DNA of 64,000 nucleotides from a virus (Duplodnaviria > Heunggongvirae > Uroviricota > Caudoviricetes): the IMG/VR virus record IMGVR_UViG_2721755646_000010; one strand, given 5' to 3'. The position numbers are program-made. Below are positions 6,001 to 9,000 of this stretch, piece by piece; the stretch's first letter is position 1, and each line of letters begins with the position of its first letter.

Positions 6001-9000
6001 ATGAGTCCTCGCAGTTCGATGACGAAATCGTTGACAATATCTTCGGTGCACTCACCAGAGACTTTCTGAAGTAAAGGCGCATACCGCTTAGTTACCGCTC
6101 TGATAACTCTTACCTGTCCGGCAATGGCGCTGATATCAATATAAAGCGCCATCGCTGTTTCTTTGCTGATCCCTGGACGCCTTCCATTCTGATGTTTGAC
6201 TCGCCCACTGAGAAATCCTCTGCTTCCCCTTAACGCCGGGTAGCGGAACTGTTTGCTGAGAACACCGTGCGGTGTCTTGATGAGTAGAATTTAGAATAGC
6301 CTAAGAGTTATGGTCAAGCTTTTTGTGTAGAAAAACCTAAGCTTCTTGATGTAAAAAACACAAGTATTTGAAAGTTTGTGCTTTTTATTACAGAGAGTTG
6401 CGAAAAAAAGGGGGGTTATTTATTTGCGCTTCTTTTGCGAGCTTTGAGTAGTTCTTCAAAAAGTTTGTTGAAATTCTCAACTCGAGCACGCATCTCTGAC
6501 AACAGAGCCTTTTGCTCTGACTCAGGCAGTGCGTCGAACAGTTGAAGCAACTCTTTTTGATCTTCTGTCAGATTGACTGGCTGATTATCTGGGATCGGTT
6601 CGCCTGGTTGCTTATCTTCATCTCCAAAAAGAAGCCAAGTCGGCGAGCACTGAAGCGCCTGGCTCAGTGCGAATAATCTCTTCCCCGCTGGCTGTGTTTC
6701 ATCTCTTTCCCATTGAGAAATTGTTACGTGAGCCACTTTGACCAGCTTACCTAATGCGGCCTGAGACAGTTTTAATTTTTTTCGCCTGTATAAGAGGCGA
6801 GCACCGAAGGTTTCGTTTTTCATATTAGGTAATTCTAATTTTTCTTGACTTAGGTTTCTCTACGATCTAGTTTCCTTAGGAAAATCTAAGGGTTTCGATA
6901 TGTTGAAAATTGATGCTATAGCGTTTTTTGGCAGCAAAACAAAGCTTGCCAATGTCGCAGGAGTTAGGCTGGCAAGCGTTGCTGCATGGGGGGAACTGGT
7001 TCCTGAAGGTCGCGCGATGCGCCTGCAAGAGGCATCCGGCGGGGAACTTCAGTACGACCCCAAAGTTTATGACGAATATCGTAAGGCAAAGCGGGCGGGG
7101 CGGTTGAACAATGAAAATCACCACTGAACAGGTTTGTGAGGCTCTGGATACCTGGGTATGCCGACCAGGAATGACACAGGAGCAGGCGACGATATTAATC
7201 ACGGAAGCATTCTGGGCTCTGAAAGAACGCCCGAACATCGATGTTCAACGCGTCACGTTTAATGATGGCGAGGTTGATCAACGGGCGCTGGGCGTTAACC
7301 GGGTGAAGATATTCGAACGCTGGAAAGCTATCGACACCAGAGATAAGCGTGACAAATTCACGGCGCTGATTCCGGCAATTATGGAGGCTATCCGGATCAG
7401 CGATTTCAGATTGTATTGTGAAATTACTGACGGAAAAAGCATTACGTACATGATCGCCGGGTTAAACAAAGAATATGGCGATGTGGTGGAGTCCGGGCTG
7501 CTTTTTGCGGATCCAGTTGTTGTGGAACGTGAGACTGACGAGCTTATAGAAAAAGCTATTGCTTTCAAGCACGCGTATCGTCAGCAATACCAATATTACT
7601 TTGCAGATAAACAAATGTCTGCCAGGGGGGCGTATGAGTATCGATGCACTACGATGGGCTAAAAAGGTGAAAACCGGCAGTTCATCCAGTAAGTCAGTAT
7701 TGACCTGGCTTGCTGATATGTGCGGTGCCGATTTGTGTGCATACCCGTCTGTATCTGCACTGGCAGAAGTAACGGAACTGAACAAAAAGACTGTGCAGGA
7801 CAGCTTACGACACCTGATGGAGATTGGGTTAATTGTTGATACCGGTGAGAGAAAAGGCAGAACAAAGCAAATTGTGGTGTACCGACTTATCGGTGTAGAA
7901 GAAAGTGTTGCCGAGCCTGAATACACCCAAAAACGGGAGTCTTTAAAGGTGGGTAAAATTGGTGCTGTTAATAAAAACAGTACCGAAAATGGTTATGTTT
8001 CAGCACAAAACAGACCCAAAAACAGAACTCTTAGCTGCATGGAAAATAACCAAAGACACCCAAATTTTCCATCAAAGACACCCAAAAACGGATCACGGAA
8101 CCCAAAGGAACCCAAAGATCTAAACCCCACACATAACGCACGCGAGAGTGCTCCGACCAGTGAGCAGGAAGTTTTGTCGTTACAGGCAGCCCCCCCTGTA
8201 TTCCTGTATGGCCTGAGCGAACCCATCGGAAAATTCCCGATGAGCGATAGCTGGTATCCGTCACGGGATTTTCGACGACGGGCTGCGTTGTGGGGGATGG
8301 CTTTGCCGGAGACAGAATTTACACCTGCTGAACTTGCCGCCTTCCGGGACTACTGGGCAGCGGAGGGGAAAGTGTTTACGCAGATTCAGTGGGAGCAGAA
8401 ATTCGCCCGTCACGTAAATCACGTCAGGGCGCAGGTTAAACCAGTCAGCAAAGGGGTAAACCATGCAGCAGCACCAGGTGGCACCGCATCACGGGCAGTT
8501 CAGGAAATTCGGGCAGCACGTGAGCAGTGGGAACGTGAAAACGGATTTATCAGCGACGGAAACGGCCTGGAAGCTGTGGGAACTCATGGGGGTGGTTTAT
8601 TCGAACCGCTGGATCCAGAAGAACGGGGCCGCACCTTCGAAGCTCTGGATTGCACAGATTGGCGCGATGACTGAGCAGCAAATCCGGCAGGTCTGCCGCC
8701 AGTGCATGGACCGCTGCCGGGCGGGTGAAACATGGCCTCCGGACCTGGCTGAGTTTGTGGCACTGATTTCGAAAAGCGGAGCCAATCCATTCGGTCTGAC
8801 GGTGGATGCTGTGATGGAGGAGTACCGCCGCTGGCGCAATGAGTCCTGGCGATACGACGGAAGTGATAAGTACCCGTGGTCTCAGCCTGTGCTGTATCAC
8901 ATTTGCCTCGAGATGCGTTCAAAGGGGATTGAGCGCCAGATGACCGAAGGGGAATTAAAACGGCTTGCAGAACGGCAACTGACGAAATGGGCAAAGCATG

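Follow-up and report, generated by a model that had tools for sequence, protein, structure and literature searches.

Out-of-frame overlap of about 210 nucleotides between the O-like initiator and P-like helicase loader genes in two Rac-like prophages of Escherichia coli O157:H7

Two lambdoid/Rac-like prophages of Escherichia coli O157:H7 lie in the 64,000-nucleotide (nt) stretch of viral DNA analysed here (IMG/VR record IMGVR_UViG_2721755646_000010, hereafter the window), and in each of them a gene for an O-like replication initiator is followed on the same strand by a gene for a P-like helicase loader. Most probably, two proteins are made at this junction from the same 212 nt (copy 1) or 209 nt (copy 2) read in two frames: O is translated through to position 8674, and P is translated independently from an ATG at 8463 preceded by a Shine-Dalgarno (SD) sequence. 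Both open reading frames (ORFs), as well as the SD sequence and ATG of P, are conserved, selection on the shared DNA is frame-specific, and the O tails are modular with the P N-termini. Judged by sequence comparison, the overlap looks real and not accidental; as an example of same-strand phage gene overlap it is well supported, though not revolutionary.

In copy 1 the O-like gene occupies 7634..8674 (+ strand) and ends with the TGA at 8672-8674. The ATG at 7634 is the start chosen by the Prokaryotic Genome Annotation Pipeline (PGAP), although the ORF is open from a TTG at 7559. The encoded protein consists of an N-terminal winged helix-turn-helix-like region, an iteron-bearing linker, a DnaT-like domain and a C-terminal helix with a tail. 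The long form of P (221 amino acids (aa), 8463..9128, + strand) is identical to GenBank AAG56124.1 and is read in the +1 frame relative to O, so that 8463..8674 is dual-coded. In copy 2, likewise on the + strand, the O-like gene (54485..55534) has an N-terminal body unlike that of copy 1 but the same DnaT-like domain and tail, P (55326..55988, 220 aa) is identical to AAG56164.1, and the dual-coded part is 55326..55534. Our ORF listing thus agrees with the initial annotation, which had placed the overlap at 8463/8674 and 55326/55534 and had described both frames as open in two differing copies. Over the overlap the copies share 92.8% identity, with 15 substitutions and one 3-nt indel, compared with 81.6% and 86.8% in the flanking O-only (283 nt) and P-only (454 nt) segments. 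Upstream of Met69, the P frame encodes MQQHQVAPHHGQFRK... and ...TDLSATETAWK.

A genome scan for relatives gave 32 loci, in Escherichia, Salmonella, Citrobacter, Enterobacter, Klebsiella, Kluyvera, Pluralibacter, Phytobacter, Pectobacterium, Buttiauxella, Samsonia, Erwinia, Limnobaculum, Scandinavium and others, and a phage collection contributed Citrobacter phage Chris1 and phage Rac-SA53 as well. The overlap, 149-224 nt long (mostly 209-215 nt) and always in the +1 frame, is present in about 27 of the 30 informative loci, with P identity down to 47% and in 13 or more enterobacterial genera (the first 13 named above). The loci without it are seemingly decayed or frameshifted copies (L028, L035), lambda-type hybrids and orphan P genes. 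Both ORFs stay open across the diverged relatives, with indels only in multiples of three; the exceptions, i.e. L028, L035 and the two IMG/VR contigs L095 and L096, look like frameshifted or decayed copies. The 1-nt deletions of L095 and L096 lie in O, at window-equivalent positions 8191 and 8438. The scan of viral contigs returned only E. coli loci of 96-100% identity and no distant lineages, and was used for polymorphism counts.

In 16 diverged O genes, stop codons occur in the +1 frame upstream of the overlap at a rate of 0.045 per codon (203/4502). The chance of finding 70 open +1-frame codons is about 0.04 for one sequence, and the overlap holds no stop in any of the 16 lineages. The O frame remains open over the first 70 codons of P in just 4.9% of P-synonymous recodings, and in the P-only part the -1 frame has stops at 10 of 150 codons. 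In a Buttiauxella metagenome-assembled genome (L024:2563-3582), the P frame, of 339 codons, is open from as far as 545 nt ahead of the O stop, which is probably accidental.

The P gene has its own conserved SD and ATG inside the O gene. In copy 1, an SD-like AAAGGGG (8450..8456, + strand), read in O as part of the codons for Lys-Gly, lies 6 nt 5' of the P ATG, and in copy 2 the SD-like AAGGGGGG (55313..55320, + strand) precedes it. In the relatives, GGAGG, GGGGG or GAGG stands 5-9 nt ahead of the conserved ATG, which is separated by 29-36 codons (34-36 in most) from a conserved AWxLW motif downstream. In three loci (L010, L018 and L022) the first alternative in-frame start of P is found only at codon 41-42. 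Over the SD and ATG, the O frame reads Gly-Gly followed by Asn-His-Ala/Val in many lineages, some of them with an unrelated O body, as expected if the embedded SD and ATG are themselves the conserved objects.

Frame-specific selection was examined over 8180-9128 in an alignment of 66 unique E. coli-like sequences, which share 85% identity or more and all have both ORFs intact. Each pair of site and allele was classed in both frames and set against mutational opportunity, with synonymous changes in the two non-overlapped flanks (191/512) as the reference. In the 3' half of the overlap (8568-8671), changes synonymous in O and nonsynonymous in P were strongly depleted (6/73; odds ratio (OR) 0.15, p = 1e-7), and in the 5' half (8463-8567) so were those synonymous in P and nonsynonymous in O (6/63; OR 0.18, p = 4e-6). 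The opposite classes were reduced to a lesser extent: 18/78 for O-synonymous, P-nonsynonymous changes at 8463-8567 (OR 0.50, p = 0.016) and 14/60 for P-synonymous, O-nonsynonymous changes at 8568-8671 (OR 0.51, p = 0.033). Purifying selection therefore acts in each frame, strongly in complementary halves and weakly in both frames at once within one half, and changes nonsynonymous in both frames were rarer still than those nonsynonymous in a single frame (p = 0.008 and 0.0008). This comparison, which the initial annotation had put forward as a check, reveals purifying selection in the P frame upstream of 8667. Variable sites fall at third positions of O from P codon 3 to 27 and at third positions of P from codon 30 on. 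The switch of the dominant frame at P codon 28-30 is upstream of Met42 (8586), which speaks against Met42, and strongly so against Met69, being the sole start of P.

The residues that the P frame preserves lie in the first helices of the protein (AWxLWExMGxxYSNRWxxKNGxxPSxLWIAQIG). Among 27 P homologues of 45-90% identity, no replacement occurs at W50, K53, N54, G55, P58 or W62, and conservation reaches 90% or more at W39, M42, R49 and I66. Each of these positions precedes Met69, in a stretch in which 40 P codons are strongly constrained. Met69 itself is not conserved, being replaced by Leu in many homologues. This conservation is not a by-product of O, since orphan P genes with no initiator upstream (L026, L029) retain the N-terminal helices; furthermore, the W..KNG motif is retained in L031, where the O tail is different, and lambda-type relatives have the homologous P segment free of overlap with O. 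The two orphan genes are intact in Erwinia (L026:2986-3618 and L029:2956-3540), and that of L026 is located between ttcA-like and dbpA-like genes, i.e. in the Rac attachment neighbourhood. They may be prophage remnants or domesticated loaders.

The structure predictions follow the same division. In the AlphaFold2 model of the 221-aa P (27-sequence alignment, mean predicted local distance difference test (pLDDT) 69), residues 1-28 score below 50, and helices are predicted at 29-54, 60-67, 71-86 and onward. For the last 164 residues of O, AlphaFold2 predicted the DnaT-like domain with confidence, followed by a disordered linker, whose DNA includes the SD and ATG of P, by a helix (ASRAVQEIRAAREQWERE) at fragment residues 103-120 (8486-8539, + strand) and by 44 disordered residues (121-164); the underlying alignment was shallow, most of the homologues retrieved with the O C-terminus being partial proteins. 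In the models, the structured segment of each protein is laid over a disordered segment of its partner, and the exchange of roles matches the selection switch. The 5' part of the overlap (8463..8547), in which the O frame is dominant, contains the O helix and the poorly conserved, predicted disordered leader of P (codons 1-28). The 3' part (8548..8671), in which the P frame is dominant, encodes the P helices 29-54 and 60-67 with W50, K53, N54, G55, P58 and W62, together with the last ~42 codons of O, a Gly/Asp/Glu-rich tail that is weakly constrained and predicted to be disordered.

Based on these observations, we suggest that P would initiate at 8463, using an SD and ATG of its own 70 codons ahead of the O stop, and that O would be read to 8674. 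From 8463 to ~8547 the sequence would be set by O, i.e. by a conserved amphipathic helix following the DnaT-like domain, and P would carry there a disordered, freely evolving leader of 28 residues. From ~8548 to 8671 it would be set by the first conserved helices of P, and O would read a weakly constrained, acidic, Gly-rich tail. The overlap would be kept as each gene needs the part in which it dominates. As lambda-type relatives encode the homologous P segment without any overlap, the O extension looks like the overprinted frame, the first part of which may have gained a function later. Taken together, the conserved SD and ATG, the selection pattern, the invariant residues and the complementary structure predictions support what the initial annotation had proposed, namely a genuine out-of-frame overlap with P opening at 8463/55326.

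Several points weigh against this interpretation. We infer the start at 8463 from comparison of sequences, and GTG codons at P codons 6, 20 and 25 of the window copy are possible starts as well. P codons 1-28 are near neutral in the P frame, and say little about their own translation, for which the conserved SD and ATG and the lack of stop codons speak. In the 3' half, the residues conserved in the O tail (LD.EER, D..D..DD) are exactly those forced by the invariant codons of P, so that the evidence for the last ~42 residues of O having a function of their own is weak (OR 0.51, p = 0.03). The counted events are polymorphisms treated as independent, with recombination ignored, and are not phylogenetically independent, although the effect sizes are large. 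Both AlphaFold2 models are of moderate confidence (mean pLDDT 69), and PGAP currently favours the 153-aa or 180-aa form of P.

The alternative that survives best, which we nevertheless consider improbable, is a start at Met42, the internal in-frame ATG at 8586..8588 (+ strand) with which the 180-aa database form begins. The overlap would then be 89 nt, with the upstream frame left open by chance in O, or the 221-aa and 180-aa isoforms would occur as a mixture. Met42 is at least 90% conserved, TGGGAA (the Trp-Glu codons) 3-8 nt upstream of it could act as a weak SD, the 180-aa form is found on about 1000 database contigs, and the almost complete lack of P-frame constraint over codons 1-28 agrees with such a start. 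However, codons 30-41, which the shorter protein would lack, are P-dominated: six P-synonymous changes stand against three P-nonsynonymous ones, and one O-synonymous change against eight O-nonsynonymous ones. W39 is at least 90% conserved and AW at 35-36 is retained in most sequences, and a start at Met42 would cut the predicted helix that begins at residue 29. In every lineage, also where the O body is unrelated, the upstream SD and ATG are conserved at a near-fixed distance, and the overlap has no stop in any of the 16 lineages. Met42 is a possible secondary start, and a minor short isoform of P may exist alongside the long one.

It is far less probable that P starts only at 8667/55527 as a 153-aa protein coupled to the O stop by the ATGACTGA junction (8667..8674, + strand), with the upstream P frame open by chance. 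The initial annotation had offered this as its alternative. It corresponds to the PGAP annotation (WP_000139485.1), a junction of the ATGA type is the norm in lambda, and the chance of an open +1 frame in a single sequence (see above) is not negligible. Our results contradict it: Leu takes the place of Met69 in many homologues, P residues that are invariant (six) or nearly so (several) and 40 constrained codons are located upstream of it, and O-synonymous, P-nonsynonymous changes are depleted 6.6-fold at 8568-8671 (p = 1e-7). The 153-aa protein would also lack two predicted helices. In lambda P, an in-frame deletion of 76 codons, which fuses codon 9 to codon 86, abolishes the initiation of replication (PMC3640518). 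The alignment of the P family profile with lambda P (PDB 8v9t) begins upstream of Met69, pairing W62 with lambda W70. The likeness to the N-terminus of lambda P, loosely recognized in the initial annotation, is weak and not absent. A five-sequence alignment retains P58, W62, G67, T70 and Q73, and the 68-aa extension alone matches phrog_109 with E = 0.05 and 0.002, but hhalign against lambda-type P covers residues 82-217 only.

The remaining explanation, that the overlap is conserved as a nucleic-acid element (an origin, iterons or an RNA structure) or through a programmed frameshift giving an O-P fusion, is hardly tenable: the overlap is indeed more conserved than its flanks and phrog_15931 behaves as an O-P fusion profile, but variation is strictly period-3 with a frame switch halfway, which is a protein-coding signature, the iteron-like repeats are upstream of the overlap (7920-8116), the RNA at the P start shows no gain in folding over shuffled sequences (z = 0.26), neither frame contains an X_XXY_YYZ heptamer, the sole homopolymer being G5 at 8588, and in the window copy the P-frame TAA at 8457-8459, two codons before the P ATG, means that a frameshift upstream of it cannot yield the fusion. 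As to phrog_15931 itself, O matches positions 1-347 and P positions 279-482 of its 482 positions, and the profile looks as if it had been built from O-P fusions or frameshifted ORFs.

The long P ORF is not new, as it has been in GenBank since 2001 (EDL933 AAG56124.1 and AAG56164.1). What is new here is the evidence on which of the database forms of P is right, as three competing forms circulate. RefSeq/PGAP starts P at 8667 (153 aa). In other genera (Salmonella, Citrobacter, Klebsiella and others) PGAP mostly begins at the Met42 equivalent (180-181 aa), and the 221-223 aa form is held by older GenBank records and Prodigal-type calls. The 221-aa and 220-aa proteins are found on 339 and 172 contigs, respectively, and the 180-aa and 153-aa forms on about 1000 contigs each. 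The RefSeq ‘replication protein P’ of a widespread enterobacterial prophage family is thus probably truncated by 41 or 68 residues and would then lack the N-terminal helices that are best conserved. In literature searches, neither a description of this O/P overlap nor ribosome profiling or proteomic evidence for the locus was found, and there is no mention of it in a study of E. coli genes remodelled out of frame (PMC8788219). When same-strand overlaps of such length turn up in bacterial or prophage genomes, they are usually put down to wrongly called starts; the O/P overlap, kept in 13 or more genera, under frame-specific selection and with a clean switch of the dominant frame, is a good natural test case for methods that detect dual-frame selection.

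The O tails and P N-termini are combined in a regular manner. When P of the present type follows, one tail type is found on three different O bodies: the DnaT type, the L022/L027 type and a lambda-O-C-like type (L031). Other DnaT-type O proteins, near-identical through the DnaT domain, end in different short tails (...DWNNTDWIEGVWDE..., ...HWNSPEAWEEFL) and are followed by a 258-260-aa P with a lambda-type N-terminus. Such pairs overlap by just 4-29 nt, e.g. 29 and 4 nt in L118:2501-4079 and L119:2501-4071, respectively. The lambda-type P proteins of these two loci carry an insertion of ~27 residues near the C-terminus. The tail type switches in the linker directly after the DnaT domain, the stretch with the P ribosome-binding site. 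This pattern indicates that O tails and P N-termini are exchanged together between phages. In L032-L036, hybrid P proteins join a lambda-type N-terminus to the C-terminus of the window family, which points to recombination within P near residue 85-95. In L032:2695-3387 and L033:2698-3405, as well as in L034 and L036, the lambda-type part comprises the N-terminal ~110 residues and the window-family part the C-terminal half.

The C-terminus of lambda O is held to contact the N-terminal part of P. By analogy, the helix and tail of O plus the N-terminal domain of P plausibly form an initiator-loader contact module, and the overlap suggests where this contact is made in DnaT-type lambdoid replicons. 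A more far-reaching idea, which we consider rather unlikely and offer tentatively, is that the overlap might be a specificity cassette, in which the O C-terminal helix/tail and the P N-terminal domain are mutual recognition surfaces co-inherited through shared DNA. If so, the shared DNA would guarantee their joint exchange when mosaic lambdoid phages recombine, and ribosomes translating O across the P ribosome-binding site could limit the synthesis of toxic, DnaB-sequestering P. It would then be a rare out-of-frame overlap that physically links a co-evolving protein-protein interface.

As regards family assignment, the P-like proteins match PF06992 (Phage_lambda_P) with 61.2 and 57.9 bits (cut-off 26) and phrog_109 (‘P-like helicase loader’) with E = 1e-61 over residues 19-220, and their genes are placed directly downstream of an initiator gene, as is characteristic of this family; NCBIfam contains no model matching P. 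Loading of DnaB is a putative function, based on a sequence match to lambda P as contained in the helicase-loader structure 8v9t. The O-like proteins match PF17948 (DnaT-like domain) with 60.8 and 62.6 bits (cut-off 25). Their N-terminal helix-turn-helix match is weak, and the match to NF002770 is partial and under its cut-off. Five or six iteron-like direct repeats (CAAAGACACCCAAAAAC and variants) make up the array in the O linker and constitute a candidate replication origin within the initiator gene, as in lambda. O157:H7 chromosomes carry the region with 100% identity, and more than 2000 E. coli genomes match it; in EDL933, both prophage copies carry the label CP-933O. Upstream, a ydaT-like gene (7111-7662) shares 29 nt with O as counted from the PGAP start at 7634, and the start of O is likewise uncertain. 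Downstream of the DUF1627 gene and inside the prophage, RefSeq records a frameshifted fimbrial-protein pseudogene with an internal stop (L001:4063-4596, window ~10063-10596).

Compared with lambda O-P, the gene order is alike, with an initiator gene that contains internal iteron-like repeats followed by a P-family loader, and particular N-terminal P modules are likewise paired with particular O C-termini. The C-terminal two-thirds of the window P are clearly homologous to lambda P (hhalign probability 99.9%; PDB 8v9t, E = 1.5e-6), whereas the N-terminal ~80 residues are at best distantly related. The window initiator has a DnaT-like domain (PF17948) in place of the C-terminal domain of lambda O, and the O/P overlap, 4 nt (ATGA) in lambda, is 209-215 nt and out of frame here. 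An old report cited in PMC3640518 described a read-through product, O', that ends within the coding region of the lambda P N-terminus. As in the present case, the initiator is thereby lengthened in the O frame into DNA encoding the N-terminus of P. However, O' arises in lambda only if the O stop is read through, and has no known role, while the extension found here is the normal, conserved reading frame.

The ydaU-ydaV region of the Rac prophage of E. coli K-12 has the same neighbourhood, with ydaS/ydaT-like genes upstream and ydaW/DUF1627 downstream. Its DUF1376 initiator, on the other hand, has no tail, and is separated by a 6-nt gap from a DnaC-like ATPase instead of a P-family loader, with no overlap. 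No significant similarity was found between K-12 Rac YdaU and the O tail (E = 0.32). Similarity of the window to K-12 Rac (L117) resumes just past the P stop, at ~9128-9200, i.e. at the ydaV/ydaW boundary. In K-12 Rac, P is replaced by the DnaC-like ydaV, and the boundary at the P stop marks an exchange point of loader cassettes.

Out-of-frame gene pairs such as phiX174 D/E and lambda Rz/Rz1 are examples of overprinting. With such viral pairs the O/P overlap shares two out-of-frame ORFs, a structured segment laid over a disordered, weakly constrained one, and depressed synonymous change. It differs from them in being a terminal, tail-to-head overlap of two old, functionally coupled genes, with no novel gene embedded in an old one, and in that dominance passes once from one frame to the other, midway through the shared DNA. 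Same-strand overprinted gene pairs are of a kind well known in viruses (reviewed in PMC8227390).

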